Origin: Owenweeksia sp.
Lineage (GTDB): Bacteria > Bacteroidota > Bacteroidia > Flavobacteriales > Schleiferiaceae
DNA length: 64,000 bases
Direction of reading: 5' to 3'
Assembly: GCA_965229445.1 (NCBI GenBank)
Contig: OZ245876.1
Coordinates: 2,128,099 to 2,192,098, forward strand
The notes under the pieces were generated by a model. The model was not told the DNA's origin and searched no databases. It saw nothing but the letters and a program-made list of their open reading frames with translations. Both the position numbers and the translations under genes were made by a program. This document shows positions 27,367-46,100 of this stretch, one piece after another. How positions within the stretch are numbered: the stretch's first letter is position 1; each line of letters starts with the position of its first letter.

Positions 27367-28179
27367 ATGAAAGCTTTTGAAGGAAATCTGGATGTATTTG
27401 GATCCGTGTTTAACCGAGCTGTGAAGCATCACTATAAATTCGAACCAAAAGACTTGCATTCGATGATGATCATTGCAGATTCCAAAAATATTCAGACTCT
27501 TGACCAATTTGGAAGCAGATACTGCGAGGACAGAGTACAATTTATATATAATACCGAGTTCCTTTGGTCAAATCTTATCCAGCTTATTGACAATACTAAA
27601 CCAGATTTGTTGCTAATTCAAAGGCAGTTAGGAATGCATGCGGGTATTGAGTTTTCTTTGGGGCCATTATTGGTGAACCTGTCTCAGGAATTTGAAATTC
27701 CTATTCTCGTATTACCCAGTCATCAGAAAGCTTATGAAATAAAGACTGTTCTAGCAGGGTTTGATCACAAGATAGATAACAGTCATTTGGTGAACCATTC
27801 GCTCATGTTAAAAATGGACATGGAGAACTTGCTTCTGGTCCATATTGAAGAAGAAAGTGTTTTCAACTATTATATGGATGCTATTACCAAGATTCCAGGG
27901 ATAAATACGGACTATGCAAAAACCAATATCGAAAAGACCATTCTTGATTTATCCGGCGACTTCTTTGACGATGTGATTGAGAGTTTATCCAACAAAAGAT
28001 TTAAGGTGCATCAGTACTGCAGACTGGGAGATGTAGTAAAGGAATACCAGGCAATAGTCTCACAGCACAATGTTGATTTGATGGTTTTCGAGGCAGAAGA
28101 TGATTCTAAATTGGCGATGCACAGCTTGGGTCAATCCTTAGCTATACAATTTCCTCATATAGCAACATTGCTGGTATGA
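27367..28179 (+). CDS. Tandem universal-stress-protein (UspA)-like protein, degenerate nucleotide-binding motifs
   Basis: Two ~135-aa halves each end in a Usp-like pattern (DLLLIQRQLG...LGPLLVNLSQEFEIPILVLP and DLMVFEAEDD...LGQSLAIQFPHIATLLV). The G-x2-G-x9-G(S/T) ATP motif is not intact. Confidence 0.5.
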   Translation: MKAFEGNLDVFGSVFNRAVKHHYKFEPKDLHSMMIIADSKNIQTLDQFGSRYCEDRVQFIYNTEFLWSNLIQLIDNTKPDLLLIQRQLGMHAGIEFSLGPLLVNLSQEFEIPILVLPSHQKAYEIKTVLAGFDHKIDNSHLVNHSLMLKMDMENLLLVHIEEESVFNYYMDAITKIPGINTDYAKTNIEKTILDLSGDFFDDVIESLSNKRFKVHQYCRLGDVVKEYQAIVSQHNVDLMVFEAEDDSKLAMHSLGQSLAIQFPHIATLLV

Positions 28180-29552
28180 TTCCATTAAGTACACAATTAG
28201 GTCAGGTATCACAAGGAGTAACCTTTCTGTTTGTCTTCATTCTTGGACTGATGATTTTAGCCTTGGCCCTCGAAACTAAAATTCATGCACATAAGTCGGT
28301 AATCACAGGGGTCACCGCCGGACTGGCCTTGATCCTTGGACAAGCTCTCGGGATATTTGACGGCCTCGAGTCGCATAGCAGTCATATGAAGTTCTACATC
28401 AGTTTCATCGATTGGGGTGTGATTGCTATTATTCTCGGATCAAGTATATTCATTGATGTTACTTCCAAAAGTGGAATTTTCTCATGGTTAGCAATTAAAC
28501 TTACTAAAATGACCAAAGGAGATCCACTAGGGTTGCTCATCACCTACTCGGTGCTTACAGTGATATTTTCAGCATTGTTGAACAATGTTACGGCTATGTT
28601 GATCATTGGTTCGCTTACGGTAGTATCACTCAAAAATCTTGATCGTAATGACTTATTGCTCGGGTTTCTGCTATGTGAAGGTTTATTAACAAACATCGGG
28701 GGCTTATTGACGTTAATCAGTTCAGTACCAAACATCATTGTTGGAAATACTGCTGGCATTTCATTTGCTACCTTCTTCCTGATTTCTGCACCTTATGTGG
28801 TTATAGCTTCAGTAGTCACTATAATTATTTCCAGCAAACTGTTTAAAATTTCCTCACTTAATACCGAGGAAGAAAAAAATACTGCAGCCCTCCTGATCAA
28901 TGACTTTGACGAGAAGGAAGGAGTTTCTTCTGAATCATTTTTTGTACTTGGTTGGATTGCGTTTCTTTCATTTATCCTGATTCTAGCAACAACCGACCTC
29001 ATACCATATGTCAGACAGTTGGGAATTGGCTTTGTTGCGATGTCTTTCGGAGTGATTATGCTCTTAAAAATTAAGAATAAGACTGAGATCACATATCGTG
29101 TACTTGATTGGGATTTGTTGTTTTTCTTTGCTTTTCTCTTTGTTGTAATTGGTGTGATGGAACATGCTCAGGTTCTCAACCTGATAGGAGGATTTGTAGT
29201 GAAACTAATGGATTTGGGAAGTGAATCGGGACCGATTGCCTTACTATGGGCAAGTGCCATTGCCAGTTCCGTAACTGATAACATTCCCCTTGCTGCAATG
29301 CTGGCGAAGACCATGTCTTCACTTCCTGAATTTTCTCAGAATTTTTGGTGGTCAGTGATCTATGGGGCTAATCTTGGTGGAAATATCACACCAATTGGAA
29401 GCGCATCTACCGTTGTTGCAGTGACCGTCATCCAGAGGAATAATTTGAGCCTTTCCTTTATTCAATTTATAGTAAGGGCTTTGCCATTTGCAATCATACA
29501 GTTGATTTTAGCCAGCGGGTATGTTTATCTGATTGGATTGTTTCTGGCTTGA
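28176..29552 (+). CDS. ArsB/NhaD (citrate-transporter-like) superfamily permease
   Basis: 458 aa and polytopic. Motifs LNNVTAMLIIG, SSVTDNIPLAAMLA and YGANLGGNITPIGSAS. ATGA overlap with the upstream Usp-like gene. Confidence 0.7.
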   Translation: MIPLSTQLGQVSQGVTFLFVFILGLMILALALETKIHAHKSVITGVTAGLALILGQALGIFDGLESHSSHMKFYISFIDWGVIAIILGSSIFIDVTSKSGIFSWLAIKLTKMTKGDPLGLLITYSVLTVIFSALLNNVTAMLIIGSLTVVSLKNLDRNDLLLGFLLCEGLLTNIGGLLTLISSVPNIIVGNTAGISFATFFLISAPYVVIASVVTIIISSKLFKISSLNTEEEKNTAALLINDFDEKEGVSSESFFVLGWIAFLSFILILATTDLIPYVRQLGIGFVAMSFGVIMLLKIKNKTEITYRVLDWDLLFFFAFLFVVIGVMEHAQVLNLIGGFVVKLMDLGSESGPIALLWASAIASSVTDNIPLAAMLAKTMSSLPEFSQNFWWSVIYGANLGGNITPIGSASTVVAVTVIQRNNLSLSFIQFIVRALPFAIIQLILASGYVYLIGLFLA

Positions 29553-29627: not shown

Positions 29628-29635
29628 TAGATTTG
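29628..29635 (+). promoter_or_regulatory. Candidate -7 box TAGATTTG upstream of the six-gene operon
   Basis: Matches TAnnTTTG, 37 nt upstream of ATG 29672 in a very AT-rich 120-bp gap. No convincing -33 element. Confidence 0.3.
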
Positions 29636-29671: not shown

Positions 29672-31039
29672 ATGTCTGATTCATTCGACCTTTTAGACCA
29701 ACTAGGTGACTCCAAAAAAGTAGAGAACCTCAAAGCCAAGATTGAAAAACAAAAATCTGCAGACATCGTGTCAAAACTCGATCAGATTGAATCGGATATT
29801 GACAAGGCGGTCGCAGATCAACGGGACCCAGAGGAGATTGTATCTGGAATAATAGAGTCGAACTTTGAATCATTGAATGGTGACGTTACTCAGACAGAGC
29901 AAGATCTTCAGGAGCTTATGTTACACCTGCGTGGCATGCTCGATTCTTGTGGTGGCGAATTCTCAAAGCTTCAAGAGCTAAATGCTGAAGAATTAGGGTG
30001 GATTGAGCAAGCCAAAAGAGCCTTGGCCAATGCGGAATCCGATCTTACTAATGCACGGGGAATGAGCAATGCCTGGAACATACTGTTTGGGTATAAAAAT
30101 AGCCAGGTTGCTAAAAGAGAAAAAGGTTTACTTGATAGTCAGGCCAACCTTAAACATACTGAAGCGCGTGCCAATAAAAGCTATCGCGACAGATTGAAAA
30201 ACGCTGATATTGGCGAGTCATTAAACCGAGTCATTAGTCAGGTGCAGGGTATGGTTGGCATCATCGAGGATATGATTTTGGACGTTGAAAAGCAGATTGA
30301 CGCCTTGAAAAACAGAAAGGAGTTGGCCTTTGAAACTAAAGAGAAGGCTGCTACGGTGATGCGAGATAAGAAGAAGGAACTCGAAGAAATTGAAGCCCAA
30401 TTGAAGAGTGCGGAAAATGAGTTGATTGAACTCCCCAACAACAGTCCAGAATATACTGAGCAAGAGAAGAAAATTGCGGACCTTAGAGAGAAACGGGCTG
30501 GTGCTAAAGGCAATTACAATATTGCTTTGGGAATCTTTCAAAGTAAGGAGCGTTTTGTGGATCAAATCGTTATTCATCTCGAAGCACAAACTACTACCAA
30601 GAACAACTTAAAACAACTCATCGGTCAACTTAAGAGTGATACGGAAGAGCGCGTCACTACTTATGAATCCGGACTTCAACTAATTCAAACGGCAACGGCT
30701 CAGGAAGCGGCTTCCCTCTATGAGGAGGCTGGGGTTAAAACAGATCAGAAAATCACTGAAATAGCTGCCAAAGTTCTCGTAAGCTCGGAGAAAGACCGCG
30801 TAGAACGCGTGAAGAAACACCCTAAAAGAATGACTGAATTGCACCAGGTGTTGGTAGCAATGGCCGAGGCTACTGCCAAGTATAAAGAAGAGGACGCTAA
30901 ACTAATGGAGGCGCACAGCAAGAAGTTCGGAATAGATATCCGAGAAACCTTCTCACATAGTCATGAAAATTCAGCAGATGAACCTCCTGTCACAGAGGAA
31001 AAAAACAAGGATTCCTCGGTAAATGATCTGATGGATTAA
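29672..31039 (+). CDS. Long coiled-coil protein (operon gene 1), family unknown
   Basis: 455 aa, E/K/Q-rich with heptad-like helical sequence throughout. No TM helix or signal peptide. Acidic C-terminal tail. Confidence 0.6.
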   Translation: MSDSFDLLDQLGDSKKVENLKAKIEKQKSADIVSKLDQIESDIDKAVADQRDPEEIVSGIIESNFESLNGDVTQTEQDLQELMLHLRGMLDSCGGEFSKLQELNAEELGWIEQAKRALANAESDLTNARGMSNAWNILFGYKNSQVAKREKGLLDSQANLKHTEARANKSYRDRLKNADIGESLNRVISQVQGMVGIIEDMILDVEKQIDALKNRKELAFETKEKAATVMRDKKKELEEIEAQLKSAENELIELPNNSPEYTEQEKKIADLREKRAGAKGNYNIALGIFQSKERFVDQIVIHLEAQTTTKNNLKQLIGQLKSDTEERVTTYESGLQLIQTATAQEAASLYEEAGVKTDQKITEIAAKVLVSSEKDRVERVKKHPKRMTELHQVLVAMAEATAKYKEEDAKLMEAHSKKFGIDIRETFSHSHENSADEPPVTEEKNKDSSVNDLMD

Positions 31040-31056
31040 TCGGCTGATCTAAATCT

Positions 31057-32148
31057 ATGAATACTGCCGATATTTCAGATCATTTCACTCCGCTGGATAG
31101 AAGTGTGCTAGAGGGCAAGAGTGCCTACAATGATTATTTCCGTTATGTGAAATTTGCTCTCGAGCAATTCATCAATTCATTAGATAATTATAAGGGTGAT
31201 GAACCTTATGAGGCGAAGATCATCAAAGATTTTTCCCAAAGGCTGCTGAACTCTATTGAGGTGCTAGCATTAAAGTACGCCTTTAACGATACGCACCCTA
31301 TGTTAATTGATCTTACAGAATCAGGATTCCCCAATCACATGGAATTCAAACGTTTATATAATGACTTGCACCGAAAGGCGGAACAACTCAGAAATGGCCC
31401 TAACTCTGAAACGCTAAAAACACTTATTCTGGATCAAATGATCCGCAGTAAAACAGAGCCTATTCGGCTACTTAAGCAAATAAGTAAACGTACTTATTTT
31501 GAGTTGATAGATGCGACGAAACTATATCTGGAACACAATTCCGGAAAGCTTATTCTATTGTCGAAAGGCAGGAATTTTCATCGAAAATATCTTTATAGCT
31601 GGGCATCATTTGACACCGTTACAAACAGACCTTACATCTATATGTTAGTGTTTGAACATTACCGAGAAAATGTGGCTGCAGAAAAGGCTCTTCACAGTAA
31701 AGATTTTGTAGATAGTATTAAAAGGATAACTCATAATACTGCCCCCCTGAAAGTAATGATATCTGATATAGATGCCTTGAATGATCTAATAAGACCAAAA
31801 ATTCTCAAAAGAGTAGCTATTGGACCCATATATGGTCAGTATTCTCAGGATGAACATCCATTTAGCCAGTTGCTTAAAAAGCAATTCGACTTTCAGGATT
31901 TTATCTTTCGCTATAATGCGGAGGTGATCTTCTCAGTAGGCCAACAGCGAAAGGAAAGCTTTCTCTCTAAGGGCGAATTGAGACAAATCTTCTATATCGA
32001 TGAGTCTAATAAGGAATGTATGGAGAAAATGATTTCCAAGCTACATAAATATAGTATTACCAGTCACCCAGTTTGGCAATATCTGAGCGAATACCATCCG
32101 GAAACCTTAAACGAATTAGCAGTTCCACCCTATATATATCAATATTGA
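31057..32148 (+). CDS. Hypothetical protein (operon gene 2)
   Basis: 363-aa ORF, 17 nt after gene 1 and 4 nt before gene 3. No motif recognised. Confidence 0.55.
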   Translation: MNTADISDHFTPLDRSVLEGKSAYNDYFRYVKFALEQFINSLDNYKGDEPYEAKIIKDFSQRLLNSIEVLALKYAFNDTHPMLIDLTESGFPNHMEFKRLYNDLHRKAEQLRNGPNSETLKTLILDQMIRSKTEPIRLLKQISKRTYFELIDATKLYLEHNSGKLILLSKGRNFHRKYLYSWASFDTVTNRPYIYMLVFEHYRENVAAEKALHSKDFVDSIKRITHNTAPLKVMISDIDALNDLIRPKILKRVAIGPIYGQYSQDEHPFSQLLKKQFDFQDFIFRYNAEVIFSVGQQRKESFLSKGELRQIFYIDESNKECMEKMISKLHKYSITSHPVWQYLSEYHPETLNELAVPPYIYQY

Positions 32149-32152
32149 CTAA

Positions 32153-34114
32153 ATGGAGAAAACAGATTCATCTTTACTGATCATTAAAGAAGAACACCTT
32201 GAAGAATACAAGGAGGAAGTGACCAATTACCTGAAAATGGTGGGTTGGATCACAGATGTTAAGAAAGCAAAAGGTGAAATTGACTTGTCTTTTCTGATTC
32301 ACGCAGGTAAAGCATTGAATATCAATGAAACAGATGAGCTTTCTATCATTCGTAACGCTATTCGCATCAGTAAGGATCGGATAATTCTGAGTAATACTTC
32401 AAATGTTATTCTTAATGCGCTAAAGAAGGGATTTAGTATCGGAAAGTACCTGGCCACACAATATGCACGAAGTTCGGGACTGGAATTACTCCTTCAAAAG
32501 AATAAGGATGGCAGTTTACACCAATCTGAAATGCCAGAATTTCATGATAAATGGCAAACCCAATCCGCCGTACTCTTAATGTCGGCTTCTAATTACGTAC
32601 TATATGCCCTTCGTGACCACAGGGCAGAAGAAACAAGTTCCATAAATATTGATTTTAATGGGATACCAGAGGTCAATCTCAATCGGCCATCCAAAGCACT
32701 GCAGTGCGCTTTGTATTACTATGCTGCCTACCTGGAGCGATCAGGGGTTGTAAATGACGACCTTCATTTTCTCAAGATTACCCACCTATTTTTTGAACGT
32801 TTAACTGAAGAGCTGAAGCTGAGAAGAGATGGCTTTAAGTATGTTGAGTCCTTTACTGACAATCATTATAAACTAGAGAAAACAGATTTTGTGGTTCAAG
32901 GATTTGAAACGGTGTCCACCAGTGTTACTGTGGGGATGAGTTTCAACCATGTGGAGATGGAAGATATTGTTGCCAATAAGGAGGCCAAGCACCTTTTTCA
33001 GCGGTATGCCGAACGATTGATGTGCTATGATATGGAAACACGACGTAACCCCTTGAATGAGCTGGGAGGTCTTCCAAATGTTACTATGGCGGACGGAAAG
33101 CCAGGTACCGGAAAGAGTATGCTCATAGCCGCAACAGCTACCTTGCTAAAGGAGCGTTGTGATATGCTTGGCTATAATTTCTTTTTTTGGCCTTTACCGG
33201 AGAATATCGTTTCTACCTATCAGGGTGGTACAGCCGAAAGAGCTATGGAATGGTTTAAACCCATGCGAGATCCAAGTAAGATCATCTTTGCTCCCATTGA
33301 TGATGCAGAAAACAATCTTGAAGAGCGAACAAGGCGAGGTGTTTCCTCGGGAGTTAGGGAGTTTATTGGTGTGTTTTTGAGAAATACTGAAGGTGCTTAT
33401 GCGGTTAGTTACGGCAACCGATTGATCAGCCTTTTCACAAATATTCCGGATCAAATAGATAAGGCAGTGCTCTCAAGGATTCAAATGCGCGTAAGAATGG
33501 ATGGCGCCGGTACGGACAAAGATTTTATTGATCAGGATTATCTGTGGTGGCGCAAGTATGAAAACCTGGAAGAAGGATTTGTAAATTCACCACCCCCCTC
33601 AGGATATGAGTACATGGCCAGCCAGAAAAGGCCGGATTCACTCAATGATCTTCTCAGCCACAACTATGAGTTCACAAATCAGGATGTAAAGGCCATATTT
33701 GAAGAGACCATGTCAGTTTCCCATACCCATTCGCATGACTTTTTTGGTGATTTCTATTCCGCGATTCAAAGGAAATACCCTTTTTTCTCGTCAAGAGATC
33801 TAAGGAACATTCAGAAAGCAGTTGATGCAAGGGTGATTGATTTTGATCTACCAGAAATATGGTGGGAAAGACCGGAGGATTTTTTTCACAAGGATTATGA
33901 CACCAAGCTTGAAATGCTTAAAGTACTCATGAAGGAAAATCTGAAAGGTTCAAACTTCTCACAACTTAGGCTTTATGAGGCACTTAATTATATTGAGACG
34001 TCGGTTAGAATAAATGAGACTGGCATAAATCGGGAGATCAAGGAGGCTGCCAAACGACTGTATATTCAATCTCAAGCTCGCGAACTGGCAAGTAAAGGTC
34101 AAATCCATGATTAA
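32153..34114 (+). CDS. Divergent classical-clade AAA+ ATPase (operon gene 3)
   Basis: Walker A GKPGTGKS (nt 33095-33118). STYQGGTAERAMEWF parallels SKWVGESEK..R.LF of classical AAA. Walker-B-like IIFAPIDDAE. NIPDQIDKAVLSRIQMRVRM parallels N.P..LD.A..RRF. An N-domain of about 300 aa and a C-extension of about 200 aa flank the core. Confidence 0.8.
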   Translation: MEKTDSSLLIIKEEHLEEYKEEVTNYLKMVGWITDVKKAKGEIDLSFLIHAGKALNINETDELSIIRNAIRISKDRIILSNTSNVILNALKKGFSIGKYLATQYARSSGLELLLQKNKDGSLHQSEMPEFHDKWQTQSAVLLMSASNYVLYALRDHRAEETSSINIDFNGIPEVNLNRPSKALQCALYYYAAYLERSGVVNDDLHFLKITHLFFERLTEELKLRRDGFKYVESFTDNHYKLEKTDFVVQGFETVSTSVTVGMSFNHVEMEDIVANKEAKHLFQRYAERLMCYDMETRRNPLNELGGLPNVTMADGKPGTGKSMLIAATATLLKERCDMLGYNFFFWPLPENIVSTYQGGTAERAMEWFKPMRDPSKIIFAPIDDAENNLEERTRRGVSSGVREFIGVFLRNTEGAYAVSYGNRLISLFTNIPDQIDKAVLSRIQMRVRMDGAGTDKDFIDQDYLWWRKYENLEEGFVNSPPPSGYEYMASQKRPDSLNDLLSHNYEFTNQDVKAIFEETMSVSHTHSHDFFGDFYSAIQRKYPFFSSRDLRNIQKAVDARVIDFDLPEIWWERPEDFFHKDYDTKLEMLKVLMKENLKGSNFSQLRLYEALNYIETSVRINETGINREIKEAAKRLYIQSQARELASKGQIHD

Positions 34115-35378
34115 GCTTACAGAGTCAAAGTTATTTGGCGACCGCCTCTACTATATCAACACACCGTTAATGCAAAAACGCTATAACCGATGTTTGAAAG
34201 ACATAGGAATTACACCCACCAAGCTCAAGAAATTTCATGTGGATGGTTGGGGTTGGAGTCCGGAGATTGCTAAGGAGAAGGAGGACAGATACTATCTATC
34301 TCATGGCCTCGCCAATCCCTTCTCTATTATCATTTCTCCCGAACAAAAAAACCGGCCGGTCTATATGCCGTATCACAGCTTTGATTGGGAAATACACCGA
34401 AGGGTGTTTGAGAATTATGCCTTACAGATTGAGGACATCACATCTTTGAATGGTATTTGGTTTGAGCTGGATCAGAATATAAGTGCATACCGTACTCCCC
34501 AGGATCTTCTCATGATGGAGATCGTTAATGTAAAATTTAATGTAGCGGGTGATTTAGCAAGTGCTGCCTCCGAGCAAAAAGATTTGGTTAACAAATATTT
34601 CCAGGAACCCATGGCCTGGCTAAATCCGGACTTGCGTGAAAACATCATTAAAAGTGCTAAGATGCATGGAGACTTGCGGTATCGCAATCTTGAGTTACCG
34701 AACTTCCCGTTATCCAATATCACATGTTACTACACGCTGGCGTTTAATGGACTATTTATTTTTAAAGGGGTAGAAGGTGGAAAGCCGGTGATCATTTTCG
34801 AGGATAATTCTTCTGAGATCAGTGGGGATTTAGAGCATTTGCATGTTGAGTTTAATCTCAACGATCATAAATTCATTTCATACCTGAATAAATTAAATCT
34901 GTTGGATTCTGAAGTGGGATACTTTAAGGAACACATTGAGTTGTTGGAGCTTCAATTGGAGCATATGGTGGTAGCAGCAGCGATGGAGCTGGATGAAACC
35001 ACCCCGGTTCACGAGTTGACAAAGACTCAGCGCAAGGGACTTATCAGAAAGCTCAATATTGCAGGATTGCTTGATGAAGATTTTTTTGAACTTGAGGTTC
35101 TGGTAAACAAATTAATCAATGGTGATACGGTCGCGTTAAAAACACCGGAAGAACTCCATAAATTCCTGCTGCAACCGCATAAGGATACCAGCGCTGAACA
35201 AAAAACAGTCCTTTGGCATCTTATTTCAAAAATTCAGCAAAATAACCCTGTACTACAATTTGCCTTCGATAAGACGAGATTCTATAGTGATTATCAGACA
35301 TGGAAAGAGCCGATGCAACAATGGGCAATCAATTGTATCTTGAGGAATCGAGGAATATATTCTAAACTGATTAACTAA
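34107..35378 (+). CDS. Hypothetical protein (operon gene 4)
   Basis: 423-aa ORF with an 8-nt overlap with gene 3. Soluble-looking, no recognised motif. Confidence 0.55.
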   Translation: MIKLTESKLFGDRLYYINTPLMQKRYNRCLKDIGITPTKLKKFHVDGWGWSPEIAKEKEDRYYLSHGLANPFSIIISPEQKNRPVYMPYHSFDWEIHRRVFENYALQIEDITSLNGIWFELDQNISAYRTPQDLLMMEIVNVKFNVAGDLASAASEQKDLVNKYFQEPMAWLNPDLRENIIKSAKMHGDLRYRNLELPNFPLSNITCYYTLAFNGLFIFKGVEGGKPVIIFEDNSSEISGDLEHLHVEFNLNDHKFISYLNKLNLLDSEVGYFKEHIELLELQLEHMVVAAAMELDETTPVHELTKTQRKGLIRKLNIAGLLDEDFFELEVLVNKLINGDTVALKTPEELHKFLLQPHKDTSAEQKTVLWHLISKIQQNNPVLQFAFDKTRFYSDYQTWKEPMQQWAINCILRNRGIYSKLIN

Positions 35379-35905
35379 TGGATACACTACTAGCCTTTTT
35401 CATTGGCCTTGGAACCGGGATCATCTATTATTTTGTTGATTACAGGAAGTTGATTGGCAGTTACAAGTCTTGGTATAAACTCACCCACAAGAATGGACTG
35501 CCTAAGGGTGTAGAACAAGGATTTGTTTATGCACAACCCTTCTCTGGTAAGCTATATAGTGCCATATTTCTAGCCATTATTATAACTGGTGTATTGATTC
35601 TAACAGGAAGTGCGAATATTCTTGTCCAAATAATGTATGGACTTTTTATTGCTTTAGGTCTGATGGTGGCATTTTATGTCGCCCCATTGATTTTCCGCCA
35701 TGCACCGGGAAAAATTTCAAAAGTGAAACAACAATTGGATAGGATAGATGAGCTTGAATCAAAGCTTAAGTCTGAAAGGCCTGCTGAACCGACAAAGAGG
35801 ACTGAATCCTTAAATAAAATAGATCAAGAGCCTAAGGAAAAGGGAAATAATCATAAAAAAGATGATGATTGGCGCAAAGGAATAAAGGATTATCTCAATG
35901 AATGA
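35378..35905 (+). CDS. Small membrane protein with charged C-terminal tail (operon gene 5)
   Basis: 175 aa, about 3 hydrophobic helices, then a K/E/D-rich tail. Its ATG overlaps the stop of gene 4 by 1 nt. Confidence 0.55.
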   Translation: MDTLLAFFIGLGTGIIYYFVDYRKLIGSYKSWYKLTHKNGLPKGVEQGFVYAQPFSGKLYSAIFLAIIITGVLILTGSANILVQIMYGLFIALGLMVAFYVAPLIFRHAPGKISKVKQQLDRIDELESKLKSERPAEPTKRTESLNKIDQEPKEKGNNHKKDDDWRKGIKDYLNE

Positions 35906-37493
35906 TCAAATTGATGAAACTGTTGAGGAGAAGAACCGCATATACTGGTTCTTTCATAATATAAAGGCACGCATCGGATCAAGTGTTCGTAGCTGGATAA
36001 AGCGTCGTCCTTTTCTGCTCACATTCATTCTTTTAGTAATTCTTTATGGTTTGTTTAGCGGACGTGGGTCATGGCAACCGCTAGTATTGTACATAAGACA
36101 ATACCTGGCATTAGTGCTGGTTATTGTTTTGGTTTTGATTTTGTTTGCTCTGTTTATTCGAAAGCGAGCCTGGAATCAAGTCATAATTCCGAGTATTCTG
36201 TTTGTTGTTTTCCTGGTGGCCTGTTGGTTCAGAGGGCCTGAGGTCCATAACTACTTTAGTTTATTCATCCATTATTCTAGTATCAACAAGATAGAATTGC
36301 AAGAGATGCCTGTTTCAGGAAACGAGCGAATTCAACCAGTTAATTCTATACGCACTTTAATTAACCAAGAAGCACTAAGTGAGACTGAGGATGCCACTCG
36401 TCCCCAATTTATAAAAGGAGTAGATGGTAAATTTTATTTTACGTCAGCAGTTGGCCCGGCCAGAAACTATATCCTACAGAGACTGAGTAAAAACATGTAT
36501 GAGGTGCTTAGGGTACCCGCTTATCTGCCTTCGCCCGTATTTGATAGCAGACATAGGGCGAAGGTAAATTTCGAAATTGGAGAACAGCTTCTTTTCAGTC
36601 ATAATACTAAAAATGCAGTAATCAAGCGATTTGGATTAAGTGCATTCTTTAACTGTGAACCAGCAACACCTATCTATCTTCAAGACGATACCGGAAAATG
36701 GGTTCAGGTAGTACCAATCATCAAGTGGAAAGGATTTTTGTTTCCCAGACCAGTATTTGGTGGAGTATATGTTATACAACAGTTGAGAGATCGTGATAAT
36801 TTCTTTGCTCGTATTCTATTTGGAAAAGGAGACTTCATTTCGCCTAAGGAGATTGCAGAGCATAACTATTTAACAGGACAAAACCTACAACCGCAAAAGG
36901 CACTAAACTACACTGCTAACAGTTTTAAATTTGCCAATGGATTCCTCGCCCCAATGCCCGGGTACCACGAAGGGGACGTGAGAATCCCTGAGATGCCAAA
37001 AGATCAAAACCCAATGCCATTTATAACCTATTTTACCATTAAGAATAAAGGTAAGCTTTACAACTATTTTGGACTTGAACCTTATCAAGAGGACAAGAAA
37101 GGCTTAAGTCTGAGCTTATTTATTCCGGGTGATAATGATGATACTGTTTACTTCATCAATCACAGAACCGAGAAGTTCATCGGAAGTGGAGCCATTTCAG
37201 CCAAGATCGTAGAGAGTAAAAAGAATTATGATTGGACCGTAAACTATCCGGCGGAGTCCAGACCATTTGTAAGAAAAGTAAATGGTCAAGTTCGATTCTT
37301 CTGGCTGAGTACCATTGTTTCTCGAGCTGGTAATGAAGAAGGAGATTACATTGGCGGAAGCATTCCTGAAATTTGCCTTACAGATGCTGTTTATGGAAAG
37401 GTGACCTGGATTCCGCAAGACTCTCTAATAAATTCGGAATCGTGGTTGAGAGAGGCTAGGCGCCAAATGAAAGCTTATTGGGATTCTGAATAA
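35898..37493 (+). CDS. Membrane protein with about 4 N-terminal TM helices and a ~400-aa non-membrane domain (operon gene 6)
   Basis: 531 aa. ATGAATGA overlap with gene 5. Hydrophobic helices span aa ~38-115, and the rest has no recognised family. Confidence 0.55.
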   Translation: MNDQIDETVEEKNRIYWFFHNIKARIGSSVRSWIKRRPFLLTFILLVILYGLFSGRGSWQPLVLYIRQYLALVLVIVLVLILFALFIRKRAWNQVIIPSILFVVFLVACWFRGPEVHNYFSLFIHYSSINKIELQEMPVSGNERIQPVNSIRTLINQEALSETEDATRPQFIKGVDGKFYFTSAVGPARNYILQRLSKNMYEVLRVPAYLPSPVFDSRHRAKVNFEIGEQLLFSHNTKNAVIKRFGLSAFFNCEPATPIYLQDDTGKWVQVVPIIKWKGFLFPRPVFGGVYVIQQLRDRDNFFARILFGKGDFISPKEIAEHNYLTGQNLQPQKALNYTANSFKFANGFLAPMPGYHEGDVRIPEMPKDQNPMPFITYFTIKNKGKLYNYFGLEPYQEDKKGLSLSLFIPGDNDDTVYFINHRTEKFIGSGAISAKIVESKKNYDWTVNYPAESRPFVRKVNGQVRFFWLSTIVSRAGNEEGDYIGGSIPEICLTDAVYGKVTWIPQDSLINSESWLREARRQMKAYWDSE

Positions 37494-37948
37494 AACTTGA
37501 GTATTTTTAAGATTACCATCCTATGCCAGTCCAAATATTGGATTTACCTCACGCTAATGGTGGATCGTGATCCTTGGCTCTTTTCATAGCCAAAAAAAGG
37601 CCTAACACGCTATGAGGATATCCAAATGGATGAATCTGCCCCTACAATAAAGCTTAAACTTTAGATCATTGCAGCCCTGAGGACATTCAGCGCTCAAATG
37701 CCACCATGCACTTTACTATTTACCAAAAAAGAGCACAGAAAATAGGATTCCAAAATAGGAATATCGAGCATAAGTCGGTATTAGCTCGAGCATTGAAAAT
37801 ATCGCCCGGAAAACACAAGATTTCTGATATCTTGATATTCAAAGGGTAACGTTTATTATAATAGGATTAGTTTGATGGCGTTTTACTCTTAACCGGGTGA
37901 ACGCAAGCTGCTTTCTCCCAGTCTCGAGCAAGCTCGACCAGCCTAAAT

Positions 37949-37980
37949 AAAAAAAGCCTCCCCGCCCAAGGCGGAAAGGC
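37949..37980 (-). terminator. Strand-specific rho-independent terminator
   Basis: Minus strand reads GCCUUUCCGCC-uug-GGCGGGGAGGC, 11 bp including two G-U pairs that would be C-A mismatches on the plus strand, followed by U7AUUU. Confidence 0.65.
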
Positions 37981-38253
37981 TTGATTGTCGGGGTGGCCAC
38001 GCCTTAGGCGTGGCAAGTCAGGATTTAAGATCCTGTTAATCCCCTTAGTTGGACACAAACAAAAGCCTTTGGCCATTTACAATGGCGTCAAAAGCTTAGC
38101 ATGCAGTATAAAGTGTAACTACAATTACAAAGGATTACTCGCTCCGCTTGTGATCCTTACTTCCTCCTTCTTACCAATGAAAAGCCTTGCACTCTGCGAG
38201 TGCCTGGTCTTTTTCCATGACTCCTTCACTCAAGCAAGCTTGGCTTGGAGCCA

Positions 38254-38286
38254 TAAAAAAAGCCCCGCAGCATTGCTGCGAGGCTT
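38254..38286 (-). terminator. Rho-independent terminator after tRNA-Pro
   Basis: Minus strand reads GCCUCGCAGCA-aug-CUGCGGGGC followed by U8, about 10 nt after the tRNA 3' end. Confidence 0.7.
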
Positions 38287-38296
38287 TTCATTTACG

Positions 38297-38371
38297 TCGG
38301 GGTGGCAGGATTCGAACCTGCGACCTCCTGCTCCCAAAGCAGGCGCGATGACCGGGCTACGCTACACCCCG
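38297..38371 (-). tRNA. tRNA-Pro (anticodon TGG)
   Basis: Hand-folded cloverleaf: acceptor CGGGGTG/CACCCCG, anticodon arm CCTGC-TTTGGGA-GCAGG, T arm GCAGG-TTCGAAT-CCTGC, discriminator A. No encoded CCA. Confidence 0.93.
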
Positions 38372-42249: not shown

Positions 42250-42339
42250 TGGCGGTGAGAGCGGGATTCGAACCCGCGGTACGATTGCTCGTACGGCAGT
42301 TTAGCAAACTACTGGTTTAAGCCACTCACCCATCTCACC
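42250..42339 (-). tRNA. tRNA-Ser (anticodon GCT), CCA encoded
   Basis: Acceptor GGTGAGA/TCTCACC, anticodon arm GTAGT-TTGCTAA-ACTGC, long variable arm, T arm GCGGG-TTCGAAT-CCCGC, 3' GCCA. Confidence 0.9.
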
Positions 42340-43188: not shown

Positions 43189-46100
43189 ATGAAACAAGTG
43201 TTAAGAATAATTCTGTTGGTTGGCAGTATTCTCCCCTTATCATCGGTAGCACATACTTATGGTAACAAGAACTCAATTGTAACCAAGAAAACGGATCCCG
43301 AGGTAGTCGCCACCTTGTCGGATAGAGATGCCATTCCCCTGGCCTTTCGTGCGGAACGCATGTATTGTTATGTGGCGGATAATCATAAGATCTACCAACT
43401 TCGCGGTGGTGTAACCAATGCCCATTGGGTAGAATTGGATATCGCCAGCAGCATGAAAATTCAGGGTCCTGCGGGGAGTCTGCCTTATATTGATCCTACT
43501 GGATTGCTGGCCACCGATCTGAGATATTTGGGTAAAGCCAAGTATGATTTCTCCGGCGCCAATATTCTGGGGAGCGGACAGTATGTCAACGTAAATGGTA
43601 TCGGTAACACGGTCAATGATCGTTCACACAATTCTCTCAACGCTTATAACTCCTACTCCGATGGCAATTATGTGCTAATGGTAGGTGAGCGCGATAGTGC
43701 CTTGGGACATTCGGGAGTAATTCTGGGTAGTGATATTAGCCTAAGAGCCAATCATCAGTTTGCCGCCGGTAAAGGATTGGTTGCCCAAACGGCCGGTGAA
43801 ATACTTTTTGGTCAGTATAACCAGTATGCTGGCTCTAGCAGTAACCAGTGGTTGGGTTCAGACAAACTGCTTACACTTGGAAACGGAACGGGGATGAATA
43901 ATCGCAGCAATGCCCTGGTTATCTATAAGAATGGTGATGCCGTATTCAGTGGTGATGTTTCGGCTGCTAACCTATATAGCAAACTACAGGTTGATAGTAT
44001 GTTTGTCGTGAACGGCGGTGGTGGCGGTACCGGAGTGGTTCAATCACTCAACCTTAGCGGTACAGCACTGACCATTACGGGCAGCAACACGGTAAATTTC
44101 TCTGGTTGGGATACCGATGCTTCGGATGATTTTTCGGGAGACTACAATGACCTTATTAATGCGCCAGCTGCTTTCAGCGGTAGCTATAACGATCTTACGA
44201 ATAAGCCGGCCTTATTTAGTGGGAATTACAACGACCTCACCAATAAACCGAACTTTGCCGGTTGGGATACCGATGCCTCAGATGATTTTTCCGGTGATTA
44301 CAATGACCTTATTAATGTTCCGGTTGCCTTTAGCGGAAACTATAATGACCTTACTAATAAGCCGGCTCTTTTTAGCGGTGATTACAATGACCTCGTCAAT
44401 AAACCGAGCTTTGCCGGCTGGGATACCGATGCCTCAGACGATTTTAACGGCGATTACAATGCCCTAACCAATAAGCCGACTCTTTTTAGTGGGGATTACA
44501 ATGACCTCAACAACAAACCGAGCTTTGCCGGTTGGGATACCGATGCCTCTGACGATTTTAATGGCGATTACAATGCCCTGACCAATAAACCCGATTTTTC
44601 GGGCTGGGATACAGATGCATCCGACGATTTTTCGGGAGACTATAATGACCTTAACAATCTCCCTGACATCTATGTGAAATCACAGGTAGACAGCGCCATA
44701 ATTGCGGGAGTAAATGGCAGTGCTATTCAAAACCTGAATCTAAATGGCACCAACTTGAACATTAGTGGTGGAAATACGGTAAACTTTTTAGGATGGGATA
44801 CCGATGCCTCGGATGATTTTTCTGGTGATTATACTGATTTGGTTAACACGCCTACCCTCTTCTCTGGGAGCTACAATGATCTTACCAACAAGCCCAACCT
44901 CTTTAGTGGCGATTACAATGACCTCAACAACAGACCGAGCTTTAATGGTTGGGATAAAAATGCCGCCGATGACTTCTCTGGTGATTATATGGATCTGATT
45001 AACCGGCCCAATTTTATTGGCTGGGATACGGATGCTTCTGATGATTTTAGCGGAGATTACAACGATCTGATAAATCAACCCGCACTGTTTAGCGGTAGCT
45101 ACAATGACCTGAGCAATAAGCCTAGTTTTGTTGGTTGGGATACCGATGCTTCTGACGATTTTAATGGCGATTACAATGCGCTCACCAATTTGCCAGACTT
45201 TACAGGCTGGGATACCGATGCTTCGGATGACTTTAACGGGGATTACAACAACCTTACTAACCAGCCAAATTTTACCGGCTGGGATATGGATGCCTCAGAT
45301 GATTTTAGCGGCGACTACAATGCCCTCACCAATAAGCCTAATTTATTTAGTGGCGATTATAATGACCTGAGCAACAAGCCATCTGTGTATTCCAAACTTC
45401 AGGTTGACAGTATGTTTGTGGTGAATGGCGGCGGCGGTGGCGGCACCGTGCAAAACCTTAACCTGGCCGGTAGTCAACTTACCATTACTGGAGGAAATAC
45501 CGTTAATTTCTCCGGTTGGGATACCGACGCTTCCGACGATTTCTCTGGTGACTACAACGATCTCTCTAATACCCCTGCACTCTTTAGTGGTAGCTATGCA
45601 GATCTTACCAATAAACCAAGTTTTGCTGGATGGGATACGGACGCTTCAGATGATTTTAGTGGCGATTTTAATGATTTGAGCAATCTACCCAACTTTGCCG
45701 CCTGGGATCAAAATGCGGCGGATGATTTTAGCGGGGATTATGCTGACCTTACGAACACACCGACTCTATTTTCCGGAAACTATAATGACTTGACCAATAA
45801 GCCCAAATTGTTTGACGGTGATTACAACAAGCTTCTAAACAAGCCCACCTTTAGTGGCTGGGATACGGATGCTTCCGATGATTTTAGCGGAGATTACAAT
45901 GATCTGGTCAACCTGCCGAATCTGTATAATAAAAATCAGGTGGACAGCGCCATTGCCGCTAATGCCGGATCAGGAGGATTGTCTCAAAACCTCAATCTTG
46001 CAGGTTCCACTTTGAGTATCACCGGTGGAAACTCCGTTAATTTTGCCGGTTGGGATATGGATGCTTCCGATGACTTCTCTGGTGTTTACAGCGACTTAAA

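Follow-up and report, generated by a model that had tools for sequence, protein, structure and literature searches.

Among the described systems close to the operon analyzed here are ESCRT-III/Vps4 (archaeal CdvB/CdvC, eukaryotic Snf7/Vps4) and PspA/Vipp1 (IM30). Classical AAA+ ATPases are present in some PspA/Snf7 operons, and several other bacterial contexts combining PspA/Snf7 proteins with AAA+ ATPases have been found by comparative genomics (PMC11237479). The operon, g1 to g6, lies in a 64,000-nucleotide stretch of Owenweeksia sp. DNA (the window) and also joins a coiled-coil protein, an AAA ATPase, and membrane proteins. Hundreds of bacterial species in several phyla retain the gene set as a unit. 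None of the six proteins has been characterized before, and only g3 (AAA) and g4 (DUF6638) match known families. The best explanation of the data is that together the six genes specify a single machine that is conserved and chromosomally stable.

Layout and conservation of the operon

The six ORFs lie on the + strand as one tightly packed operon. They fall exactly at the coordinates given beforehand in an earlier note on this DNA, and the spacings that it lists from g1 to g6 (+17, +4, -8, -1, and -8 nt) are all confirmed. The note had also described an AT-rich upstream gap with a TAnnTTTG box. The Bacteroidota-type -7 box TAGATTTG is found on the + strand at 29628–29635, 36 nt before the g1 ATG and within a 119-nt AT-rich gap, and its sequence suggests that it may act as a promoter. 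TAnnTTTG is depleted across the whole window (33 found versus 59 ± 7 expected by pattern count), and the sole other + strand copy inside the operon is at 36926. The description of the ~800 nt downstream as repeat-bearing holds for weak dispersed repeats, which are accompanied by hairpins resembling terminators and by 11 nt that duplicate the tRNA-Pro 3′ end, but not for tandem repeats, none of which was found there. The proposed accessory-region context was not borne out. Ordinary metabolic genes flank the operon in the window, its GC content is not deviant, tRNA-Pro adjacency is absent in related loci, and the Flavobacteriaceae locus sits between conserved housekeeping genes. We did not detect an integrase, a transposase, or neighboring defense genes in the flanks within the window.

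The ORFs of 80 related loci were clustered all-against-all. Families g1 to g6 recur in 73, 73, 69, 69, 62, and 61 of the 80 loci, respectively. The next commonest neighbor family occurs in 13/80, and no other neighbor is conserved. At least four phyla are represented, namely Bacteroidota, Desulfobacterota, Deinococcota, and Verrucomicrobiota. Throughout them the six families keep the same strand and the same order while the flanks differ, and the overlapping start/stop codons are conserved. This co-occurrence across phyla speaks decisively against a chance grouping of unrelated genes, which the earlier note had allowed for. No point in support of that reading was found, and with order and strand kept in 61 to 73 loci its probability is negligible.

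The operon is composed of two sub-operons, g1-g2-g3 and g4-g5-g6. The g2-to-g3 junction is ≤20 nt in 51/69 loci, as are the g4-to-g5 junction in 31/38 and most g5-to-g6 junctions. The g3 and g4 genes are >300 nt apart in 20/68 loci, with up to 6 kb of unrelated genes between them. Desulfonema and Trueperaceae have g1 to g4 without g5 and g6.

A remote version of the g1–g4 core (coiled-coil, unknown, AAA+, DUF6638) is found in Sinorhizobium, Shinella, Rhizobium, and Vibrio megaplasmids of ~0.9 Mb. The Sinorhizobium meliloti cluster is chromosomal and located near choXWV-tdk; one S. meliloti strain carries insertions of an IS element and an endonuclease-domain gene. The proteobacterial DUF6638 clusters have the same four-gene order as g1 to g4 and are equally uncharacterized. 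Their coiled-coil protein is homologous to g1 (hhalign 97.9%), but it is ~360 aa long and lacks the acidic tail. The S. meliloti cluster has a g2 homolog (hhalign 99.9%), and the proteobacterial AAA ATPase, which shares the IDD Walker B of g3, is 26% identical to it over 564 residues. The g5 and g6 genes are absent. In Sinorhizobium and Shinella an unrelated 2-TM DUF2333 gene directly follows DUF6638, and there are thus two unrelated membrane forms directly after g4 (g5 plus g6, and DUF2333), each with a large non-membrane domain. No membrane gene adjoins the core in the Vibrio megaplasmids, in R. leguminosarum pRlX5, or in Desulfonema and Trueperaceae. Because the core lacks an adjoining membrane gene in several lineages, the membrane link may be lineage-specific or encoded elsewhere. 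The syntenic locus of one R. leguminosarum replicon retains only the g1-like gene beside DUF2333, and in Skermanella DUF2333 has an ECF sigma/anti-sigma pair and membrane proteins as neighbors.

The six proteins

Hydropathy analysis assigns g1 to g4 to the cytoplasm, with no TM segment detected in any of the four, and g5 and g6 to the membrane. The g1 gene (29672–31039, +) encodes a 455-aa protein without a Pfam family that had been described as an all-helical coiled coil. Its AlphaFold2 model is indeed all helix (mean pLDDT 73), with helices at residues 53–100, 105–129, 141–177, 180–253, and 259–369; residues 425–455 fall below pLDDT 50. In alignments the SDTEER motif (residues 322–327) is invariant and the W-N-x-L-F-G loop (residues 135–140) is conserved. 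Also conserved are the N-terminal MSDxFDLL and the DDLL that closes the disordered acidic C-terminal tail, and these FDLL and DDLL termini belong to the Bacteroidota forms only.

The g3 gene (32153–34114, +) encodes a 653-aa divergent classical-clade AAA ATPase that exceeds the threshold of Pfam AAA PF00004 (38.6 bits, cut-off 21.2; E = 1.8e-9), which agrees with the view that the operon is centered on such an enzyme. It consists of a conserved ~300-residue N-terminal domain, an AAA core at ~305–450, and an extended C-terminal lid/helical region, and g3-type proteins form a full-length family of ~650 aa. The invariant elements are Walker A GxPGTGKS, the pore loop S-T-[YF]-Q-G-G, Walker B hhAP[IV]DDAENN, sensor-1 FTN, Arg 442, and the lid motif F-S-S-R-D-L-R-N-I-Q. 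The protein thus keeps an intact P-loop, aromatic pore loop, sensor-1, and arginine finger. Its Walker B is hhhhDD in place of the canonical DE, and the ATPase chemistry may therefore be unusual. Among solved chains, Rpt4, Vps4, and Yme1 come nearest, with weak E-values (best PDB E = 1.3e-3 with a single sequence and 0.03 with a profile).

These features bear on the idea that the operon encodes a true, very divergent ESCRT-III/Vps4 or PspA/Vipp1 homolog, with g1 as the ESCRT-III-superfamily polymer and g3 as a Vps4-like disassemblase. Vps4 is among the closest solved relatives of g3, and the g3 second region of homology (T-N-x-P-x3-D-x-A-x-L-S-R) is similar to the Vps4/katanin pattern. Like ESCRT-III proteins, g1 has a helical structure with long hairpins, and its disordered tail carries a conserved short end motif. 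The bacterial PspA/Snf7 and AAA+ contexts introduced above count in the same direction, although they differ from the six-gene set (PMC11237479). The searches with g1 argue against homology. Twenty g1 homologs gave no Snf7 or PspA_IM30 Pfam match at E ≤ 0.1, hhalign of the g1 profile to E. coli PspA returned a probability of 0.3%, and ESCRT-III, PspA, and Vipp1 chains are missing from the top 50 Foldseek matches. The matches obtained were F-BAR domains, ClyA-type toxins, and axonemal coiled coils, all of them non-significant (E ≥ 0.024, TM ≤ 0.3). In addition, g1 is about twice as long as PspA or ESCRT-III proteins, and g3 has no MIT or Vps4_C Pfam match. True homology is highly improbable, and g1 has no detectable relation to any membrane-remodeling protein at the level of sequence or modeled fold.

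The g2 gene (31057–32148, +) encodes a 363-aa cytoplasmic protein that belongs to no family, and relatives were not found in the PDB or Pfam. Its conserved motifs in the alignment include D-L-T-E-S-G-F-P, S-W-x-x-Y-D-x3-N-R-P, and H-P-K-x-L-K-R. The g4 gene (34107–35378, +) opens the second sub-operon and encodes a 423-aa cytoplasmic protein. It matches DUF6638 (PF20343, E = 5e-34), which corrects the impression that only the ATPase core could be named. The g4 family comprises only 397 clusters at 50% identity in 1.84 billion representatives. Among the 150 matches listed, full-length proteins measure ~400–450 aa, the shorter entries are incomplete, and no entry exceeds that length; there are therefore no g4 fusions among them. 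We found no mention of DUF6638 in published papers. An adaptor role for g2 and a tether role for g4 are guesses from gene order alone.

The g5 gene (35378–35905, +) encodes a 175-aa protein in which hydropathy reveals three TM-like segments and a charged tail, as anticipated. Hydropathy and K/R counts give a basic cytoplasmic loop at residues 21–58 and place the tail (residues 107–175) in the cytoplasm, where it is probably helical and then disordered. A counterpart 3-TM ORF of ~175 aa occupies the g5 position in 62 loci; the counterparts in Flavobacteriaceae are too diverged for tblastn. The g6 gene (35898–37493, +) encodes a 531-aa membrane protein with TM segments at residues 39–57, 69–87, and 95–113. 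The earlier description of about four TM segments and a large non-membrane domain is right about the domain but not the count, which is three: the first of the four N-terminal helices is amphipathic and cytoplasmic. The AlphaFold2 model (pLDDT 77.5, pTM 0.79) has a helical N-terminal bundle and a beta-rich domain of ~400 residues, which the positive-inside rule and K/R distribution would place outside the cytoplasm. Foldseek returned only beta-propellers, with weak scores (E ~1e-3, TM ~0.2), and the model weakly suggests such a fold. One strong match is to an unnamed BFVD entry, and the g6 alignment contains many invariant P/G/W/E/R/H/K/S residues. PDB sequence profiles and Foldseek gave no specific link to solved structures. 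Together with Pfam, NCBIfam, PADLOC, and PHROGs, these searches place none of the six beyond AAA and DUF6638, consistent with the original assessment that the operon has no recognizable pathway.

Evolutionary rate, mobility, and defense

Median pairwise identities were determined for nine syntenic loci of Flavobacteriaceae. Among the six proteins, g1 ranks highest (86%); g3 and g6 stand at 81% and 77%, g5 is second-lowest at 60%, and g4 is below it at 54%. When identity is taken relative to the window instead, g5 ranks lowest of the six. The neighboring genes give 87% (acyl-CoA dehydrogenase), 70% (RNase HII), 69% (porin), and 58% (AnmK). These data show that g1 and g3 are as conserved as core metabolic neighbors in syntenic Flavobacteriaceae. 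Across Flavobacteriaceae genera, the operon keeps a syntenic position on the chromosome.

Defense had been raised as an option, and an anti-phage or abortive-infection system would use the AAA+ ATPase and its partners to sense infection and the two membrane proteins to disrupt the membrane. Across phyla the operon has a patchy distribution, and at 42–45% identity the Flavobacteriaceae forms come no closer to the window than those of Desulfobacterota; this pattern implies old divergence or horizontal transfer. The megaplasmid location of the Vibrio core and the insertion in the S. meliloti strain would also fit defense, as would weak matches to PADLOC IetA (E = 0.006) and Pfam SUa-2TM (E = 0.013). 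However, a PADLOC scan gave no match above noise, and the SUa-2TM match is not repeated in any other g6 homolog. We did not detect phage relatives in IMG/VR or INPHARED or a link to PHROGs phage families. The matches in plasmid collections are only the remote proteobacterial core versions on very large non-mobilizable replicons, and no small or mobilizable plasmid in these collections carries the operon. The housekeeping flanks without mobility or defense genes also argue against defense, as does the absence of the putative membrane effectors from many lineages. Synteny in Flavobacteriaceae with conservation equal to or above that of core genes is the opposite of arms-race behavior. A defense role is unlikely, and the operon looks like slowly evolving cell machinery rather than a phage-defense island.

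A proposed machine and its relation to known systems

We tentatively propose a cytoplasmic AAA+ remodeler of g1 that DUF6638 links to an inner-membrane pair exposing a beta-rich domain. Most likely, g3 would be a ring-forming, presumably hexameric, substrate-threading AAA+ unfoldase or disassemblase. Its obligate partners would be g2 and the long helical-bundle protein g1, whose conservation is very high. On the cytoplasmic side of the inner membrane, the g1 protein would build a higher-order scaffold, which g3 would assemble, remodel, or recycle, possibly gripping g1 by its conserved terminal peptides and disordered tail. The g4 protein would tie this cytoplasmic machine to a membrane module formed in this lineage by g5, with its charged cytoplasmic tail, and g6, with its external beta-rich domain. 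In rhizobia, the 2-TM DUF2333 protein would substitute for the pair. The role would be housekeeping or stress-related upkeep of the membrane or envelope.

A rather doubtful alternative is an AAA+ assembly, quality-control, or signaling device that pulls the tails of g5 and g6 (or DUF2333), with g1 as a stator or adaptor and not the substrate. Extraction, insertion, or pulling on the tails would control the activity of the external domain. The long charged, probably disordered g5 tail and the conserved cytoplasmic N-terminal helix of g6 would be suitable handles, and the g4 gene is closely linked to those for the membrane proteins. That two unrelated membrane partners with large non-membrane domains share the position after g4 points the same way, as does DUF2333 near the ECF sigma/anti-sigma pair in Skermanella. 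By gene count only, we take SMc02733 to be a member of the S. meliloti cluster. A binding fragment of the envelope-stress regulator ChvI has been reported within SMc02733 (PMC3687685), which would also suit a signaling device. Against this reading, the core lacks adjoining membrane genes in several lineages, the low conservation of g5 is odd for a key substrate, and the extreme conservation of g1 over its whole length is easier to reconcile with self-assembly than with a passive adaptor role.

The proposed g1 remodeler can be compared with known systems. IetAS (PADLOC) likewise has an AAA-type ATPase and partner proteins in a compact operon, but IetA is the sole match and lies in the generic ATPase core, the IetS protease is absent, and defense systems differ from this operon in genomic context and evolutionary rate. 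Classical AAA unfoldases (Rpt subunits, Yme1/FtsH, Vps4) have in common with g3 Walker A, aromatic pore loop 1, the sensor-1 Asn, and the arginine finger in the second region of homology. They differ in that the similarity is very weak, Walker B is DE where g3 has DD, their lid motif has G-A-D where g3 has arginine, and the N- and C-terminal domains of g3 are unique to its family. In ESCRT-III/Vps4, g1 has no detectable sequence or fold relative and is about double the length, g3 has its own ~300-residue N-terminal domain in place of MIT and Vps4_C, and g2, DUF6638, and the membrane pair are extra obligate partners without a counterpart. Both systems have a classical-clade AAA with an aromatic pore loop and a helical, probably self-associating partner whose disordered tail ends in a short conserved motif, and both are membrane-associated. 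Compared with PspA/Vipp1, g3 is not a PspF-type sigma-54 activator, and PspB/C, Toastrack, and LiaIF domains are absent. The likeness is that each operon encodes a coiled-coil protein of the cytoplasm together with small integral membrane partners, and that in both cases action is expected at the membrane's inner face. The membrane-remodeling logic suggested earlier survives only as an analogy: the machine may resemble ESCRT-III/Vps4 or PspA systems in the way it works, with no homology behind the resemblance.

The six-gene operon and its relatives

Six plus-strand ORFs occupy 29672–37493 of the window. In order, they encode g1, a coiled-coil protein (29672–31039, 455 aa); g2, which has no family (31057–32148, 363 aa); g3, an AAA ATPase (32153–34114, 653 aa); g4, a DUF6638 protein (34107–35378, 423 aa); and two membrane proteins, g5 (35378–35905, 175 aa) and g6 (35898–37493, 531 aa). 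The successive spacings are +17, +4, -8, -1, and -8 nt, and the coordinates match exactly those claimed in the earlier note. A promoter-like box, TAGATTTG, was read at 29628–29635, 36 nt 5' of the g1 start. TAnnTTTG, the Bacteroidota -7 promoter motif, is strongly depleted over both strands of the whole window (33 found versus 59 ± 7 expected; 100 of 100 shuffles had at least the observed number), and the plus strand inside the operon holds only one further copy. The box and the rarity of the motif fit a single putative promoter, and the depletion is consistent with selection against spurious promoters.

In a scan that took one genome per species, at least 490 species have a relative, and the best 80 loci were kept. 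When these loci were searched by tblastn with the six proteins, the order g1-g2-g3-g4-(g5)-g6 was the same in many lineages: Flavobacteriales, Chitinophagales, Saprospiraceae, Desulfuromonadales, Opitutaceae, and some MAGs labelled Patescibacteria. There are many cultured carriers in the Flavobacteriaceae (Kordia, Tenacibaculum, Olleya, Dokdonia, Seonamhaeicola, Leptobacterium, and Patiriisocius). Annotation-free all-against-all ORF clustering gave exactly six recurrent families, present at 73, 73, 69, 69, 62, and 61 of the 80 loci; the seventh-ranked neighbour family was found at 13. In Flavobacteriaceae g5 was missed by tblastn, yet a 3-TM ORF of ~175 aa occupies the same position. Desulfonema magnum and two Trueperaceae genomes carry g1–g4 only. 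These data show that the six-gene set is a real, conserved system, whose genes stay linked in at least five phyla. The rival reading, a chance juxtaposition of six genes, is excluded, and its residual probability is vanishingly small. Two MAG contigs labelled Alteromonas (L050) and Saccharospirillaceae (L015) carry Bacteroidota-type versions of the operon. The genes flanking the Alteromonas-labelled locus are common to Flavobacteriaceae, so it is probably mis-binned; both contigs are probably the product of contaminated bins and no sign that those Gammaproteobacteria have the system.

The junctions are tight at most loci. Spacing is 20 nt or less between g2 and g3 in 51 of 69 loci, between g4 and g5 in 31 of 38, and between g5 and g6 in 27 of 37. 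The g3–g4 junction is equally short in 43 of 68 loci and exceeds 300 nt in 20 of 68, reaching up to 6 kb. The inserts are unrelated genes, with no family recurring in more than five loci, and the split therefore divides the operon into two sub-operons, g1-g2-g3 and g4-g5-g6. In Flavobacteriaceae the insert varies by genome (L057, 12018–13478; L081, 13435–16440; L047, 11954–15829); examples are DUF1963, a 3-TM protein, an RDD-family protein, an amidohydrolase, and several small secreted or membrane proteins.

A tblastn search of a plasmid collection with g4 identified remote versions in Sinorhizobium meliloti, Shinella, Rhizobium leguminosarum, and Vibrio. The S. meliloti version lies on a 3.7-Mb record labelled pSymB, and the Vibrio vulnificus and Vibrio parahaemolyticus versions lie on megaplasmids of ~0.9 Mb. 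The gene order is g1-like, g2-like, AAA, DUF6638. Such four-gene loci occur in S. meliloti Ak57 (L084, 2653–11517), Shinella (L087), R. leguminosarum pRlX5 (L088), and Vibrio megaplasmids (L085, L089). The g1-like protein aligns with g1 (hhalign 97.9%, E = 3.6e-13) over a span that includes the D-T-E-x-R motif, the g2-like protein aligns with g2 (hhalign 99.9%), and the ATPase matches g3 over 564 residues (BLASTP E = 2e-54). The clusters also have Pfam AAA and DUF6638 matches. These DUF6638 clusters of Proteobacteria are the only true relatives of the system, and their function is equally uncharacterised. The ATPase and DUF6638 genes of strain Ak57 are separated by an ISRm16 transposase and a gene with an endonuclease domain; Flavobacteriaceae have their inserts at this junction too.

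In Sinorhizobium and Shinella, the DUF6638 gene is directly followed by the gene for a 2-TM DUF2333 protein. Across these arrangements, DUF6638 is the gene consistently joined to whichever membrane partner is present. DUF2333 was considered as a distant g6 homologue and rejected (hhalign probability 1.9%). A locus on R. leguminosarum pSK03 (L090, 5777–8131) shares the surroundings of the S. meliloti cluster (choXWV, tdk ... fhs, extensin) in synteny and has only a g1-like gene next to DUF2333, without g2, AAA, or DUF6638. Its g1-like protein is 32% identical to the S. meliloti protein (E = 7e-57). This arrangement suggests either a minimal coiled-coil/membrane pair or a decayed cluster. On Skermanella rosea pSR-2 (L091, 3821–8487), DUF2333 sits within a same-strand gene run, immediately preceded by an SPW-repeat membrane protein and immediately followed by a YqhA-family membrane protein. 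The run starts with ECF-type sigma and anti-sigma factor genes, which lie two hypothetical genes further upstream, and this neighbourhood hints at an envelope-stress context for DUF2333. By gene count from shmR to choX, SMc02733 is putatively one of the S. meliloti core genes. One fragment obtained in a DNA-binding screen with ChvI, a regulator of envelope stress, lies inside SMc02733 (PMC3687685), which is a weak lead for the system.

The six proteins

Pfam, NCBIfam, PADLOC, and PHROGs searches of all six proteins returned AAA and DUF6638 only. The g3 motor is of a known kind, and each of the other five families is either new or known no further than as a DUF. The full-length g3 family is ~650 aa long, with 43–94% identity. 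Over residues 315–449, g3 scores 38.6 bits for Pfam AAA (PF00004; cut-off 21.2), and its S. meliloti and Vibrio homologues likewise score above threshold. In 16 diverse homologues, Walker A (G-x-P-G-T-G-K-S) and the lid motif F-S-S-R-D-L-R-N-I-Q are invariant. Sensor-1 F-T-N (N430), the arginine finger R442 in A-V-L-S-R, and pore loop 1 (S-T-[YF]-Q-G-G, with Gln where a hydrophobic residue is usual) are also invariant in these homologues. As judged from its motifs, g3 has kept what is needed to bind a nucleotide, to sense between subunits, and to thread a substrate. The invariant Walker B reads h-h-A-P-[IV]-D-D-[AG]-E-N-N; whereas the classical AAA motif has DE, g3 has DD, with a Glu two positions later, and the S. 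meliloti homologue also reads I-D-D. Among solved chains, PDB sequence and profile searches put Rpt4, Vps4, and the Yme1 ATPase domain nearest to g3, each with a weak score. The N-terminal domain (~300 residues) and the C-terminal region matched nothing.

The AlphaFold2 model of g1 (42 sequences, pLDDT 73) is entirely helical, with predicted helices of 48, 25, 37, 74, and 111 residues and a disordered tail at 425–455. g1 is conserved along its whole length. S-D-T-E-E-R (322–327) and a W-N-x-L-F-G loop are conserved, as are the N terminus M-S-D-x-F-D-L-L and the C terminus D-D-L-L in Bacteroidota. No Pfam family was found in any of 20 homologues, and the g1 profile retrieved keratin/coiled-coil noise only from PDB sequences. 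The best Foldseek matches (E = 0.024 at best, TM <= 0.3) are F-BAR domains, ClyA-type toxins, and axonemal coiled coils; the F-BAR and ClyA-type toxin readings were rejected at these TM scores.

The earlier note compared the set of coiled-coil, AAA+, and membrane proteins to ESCRT-III/Vps4 and PspA-type systems. True homology to these is highly improbable, as every test run of it failed. Neither Snf7/ESCRT-III (PF03357, E <= 0.1) nor PspA_IM30 (PF04012) was matched among the 20 g1 homologues, ESCRT-III and PspA chains are absent from the top 50 Foldseek PDB matches of g1, and the g1 profile aligns with Escherichia coli PspA at an hhalign probability of 0.3%. At the sequence level, g3 has no MIT or Vps4_C Pfam match at E <= 1, and it scores 14.7 bits against NCBIfam CdvC (cut-off 650). 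Pfam and NCBIfam gave no PspB/PspC or LiaI/LiaF-type matches in g5 or g6. What stands of the comparison is a proposed analogy of function.

g2 has no relatives in Pfam, scanned homologue by homologue, or in PDB profiles. g4 belongs to DUF6638 (PF20343; cut-off 27 bits): it scores 118.4 bits, and its residues 10–409 align to positions 2–391 of the 439-position profile. An exhaustive search of 1.84 billion representatives found only 397 clusters of this family. Full-length matches are ~400–450 aa with none longer among the matches listed, and there are therefore no fusions among these. The g4 profile found nothing specific among PDB sequences. A paralogous relationship between g2 and g4 was rejected (hhalign probability 0.3%). 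No paper mentioning DUF6638 was found, and literature searches on DUF6638, DUF2333, the S. meliloti genes by locus tag, and the BFVD entry matched by g6 (described below) found nothing functional.

g5 and g6 each have three TM-like segments, and g1–g4, the cytoplasmic core of the module, have none. K/R counts place the g6 N terminus, the g6 loop 88–93, and the g5 loop and tail in the cytoplasm, and the large g6 domain is therefore predicted to lie outside it. The g6 AlphaFold2 model (pLDDT 77.5, pTM 0.79, 44 sequences) has N-terminal helices followed by a beta-rich domain at 130–505. Its top Foldseek PDB matches are all 5–7-bladed beta-propellers, and they are weak (E ~1e-3, TM ~0.2, rmsd 14–17 Å). 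The g6 profile found nothing specific among PDB sequences, and Pfam scans of g1, g2, and g6 homologues gave nothing recurrent beyond coiled-coil/TM noise. BFVD contains one strong match over the whole model, A0A6G5YLZ4 (588 aa; E = 1.1e-14, TM 0.57/0.52, 15% identity), which is either a genuine viral homologue or a misclassified bacterial sequence.

Genomic context and evolutionary rate

The earlier note described an accessory-region context next to tRNA-Pro and likened the gene set to, among others, some AAA+-driven defence systems. The genomic context argues against both. The window flanks encode a PLP decarboxylase, a met-zincin, a SulP transporter, a TPR adenylate cyclase, a CitMHS transporter, a GMC oxidoreductase with its small subunit, and a cytochrome c, and the GC content of the operon (0.38–0.44) is like that of the flanks. 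The upstream genes are common to the closest relative only (ATPase 91% identical). The Flavobacteriaceae locus has acyl-CoA dehydrogenase/AnmK on one side and porin/RNase HII on the other. Median pairwise identities at nine syntenic Flavobacteriaceae loci are 86% for g1, 81% for g3, 77% for g6, 64% for g2, 60% for g5, and 54% for g4; those of the neighbours are 87% (acyl-CoA dehydrogenase), 70% (RNase HII), 69% (porin), and 58% (AnmK). A tRNA-Pro is next to the operon in none of seven relatives checked, and with ordinary flanks and normal GC the accessory-region reading is not supported. The tRNA-Pro was also rejected as an island integration site for the operon, the sole repeat of its 3' end being intergenic and 309 nt away.

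Scans against PADLOC-DB 2.0 gave best E values of 0.004–0.012 for three proteins, in three unrelated systems and none above noise, and no PHROGs model was above noise for the six proteins. Relatives of g3 or g6 were not found in IMG/VR, nor relatives of g4 or g6 in INPHARED phages. The plasmid-collection matches are confined to Vibrio megaplasmids and to rhizobial replicons that are very large, in some cases as large as a chromosome. In Flavobacteriaceae, where its position is syntenic, the operon is conserved as strongly as core genes or more so. The pattern is one of long vertical inheritance, strong purifying selection, and a housekeeping position, unlike a defence island. Genomic context and evolutionary rate thus count against a defence system, and we consider that reading very unlikely.

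Several other features of the window were observed. The 3' end of tRNA-Pro is copied exactly over 11 nt, GTCGGGGTGGC, at 37987–37997 and also at 38296–38306. The first copy heads a tRNA-like remnant on the minus strand (37945–38075) that has a stable predicted fold (-33.4 kcal/mol, z = -2.7), is not called as a tRNA, and is followed by a strong minus-strand terminator (37982–37954, 13-bp stem and T-run). The remnant has the look of either a small RNA or a tandem copy of the tRNA that has decayed. The tRNA-Pro has its own terminator-like hairpin at ~38255–38293. At 27367–29552, a 270-aa ORF without a Pfam match overlaps the start of a CitMHS/ArsB-type transporter gene by 4 nt, and this pair is conserved in the closest relative only (L003; 60% and 84% identity). 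A 1120-aa ORF at 43189–46551, with no Pfam match at E <= 1e-5, lies directly upstream of a 1440-aa ThuA/Big_7 protein. An Rfam match to the plastid psbI-rps4 3'UTR at 42253–42304 on the plus strand, opposite tRNA-Ser, scores 53.4 bits, below the gathering score of 68, and is almost certainly an antisense-tRNA artefact.

A proposed mechanism and its comparison with known systems

We propose that g3 would form a ring that threads or pulls a polypeptide, with g1 as its scaffold, its substrate, or both. The high conservation of the g1 coiled-coil points to numerous fixed contacts of the kind found within a polymer or lattice, and its disordered tail and conserved termini could be suitable handles for g3. 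In this scheme g2 would serve as a co-factor, and g4 would attach the assembly to g5/g6 or, in rhizobia, to DUF2333. Docking of a motor and scaffold on membrane partners would make maintenance or remodelling at the inner membrane or envelope the likely role. This mechanism as a whole is put forward tentatively. Its main weaknesses are the several lineages without an adjacent membrane gene and the non-canonical Walker B of g3. The most serious alternative is that the machine acts on the membrane proteins themselves, in extraction, assembly, or signalling, and we judge it unlikely.

Five of the six proteins belong to families without known function, structure, or literature, and shared retention with slow, core-metabolism-like evolution usually marks important unrecognised cell biology. 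If the remodelling and docking mechanism is true, it would mean that bacteria use an AAA+ motor at the inner membrane in a new manner, and it would give functions to DUF6638 and perhaps DUF2333. The remote versions occur in S. meliloti and Vibrio, and standard genetics is therefore possible without culturing marine Bacteroidota.

A survey of PSP/ESCRT-like systems describes several bacterial contexts that combine PspA/Snf7 with AAA+ proteins, none with the g1–g6 gene set (PMC11237479). On the remodelling reading, the system is likened to ESCRT-III/Vps4 and PspA in its working and is not a member of either family. A broader and rather doubtful reading is that it represents an unrecognised, widespread class of machine in which an AAA+ motor remodels a new coiled-coil scaffold and DUF6638 couples ATP hydrolysis to membrane proteins with large external domains (g6, or DUF2333 in rhizobia). 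Such a machine would be a non-homologous counterpart of ESCRT-III/Vps4 remodelling or of trans-envelope energy transducers.
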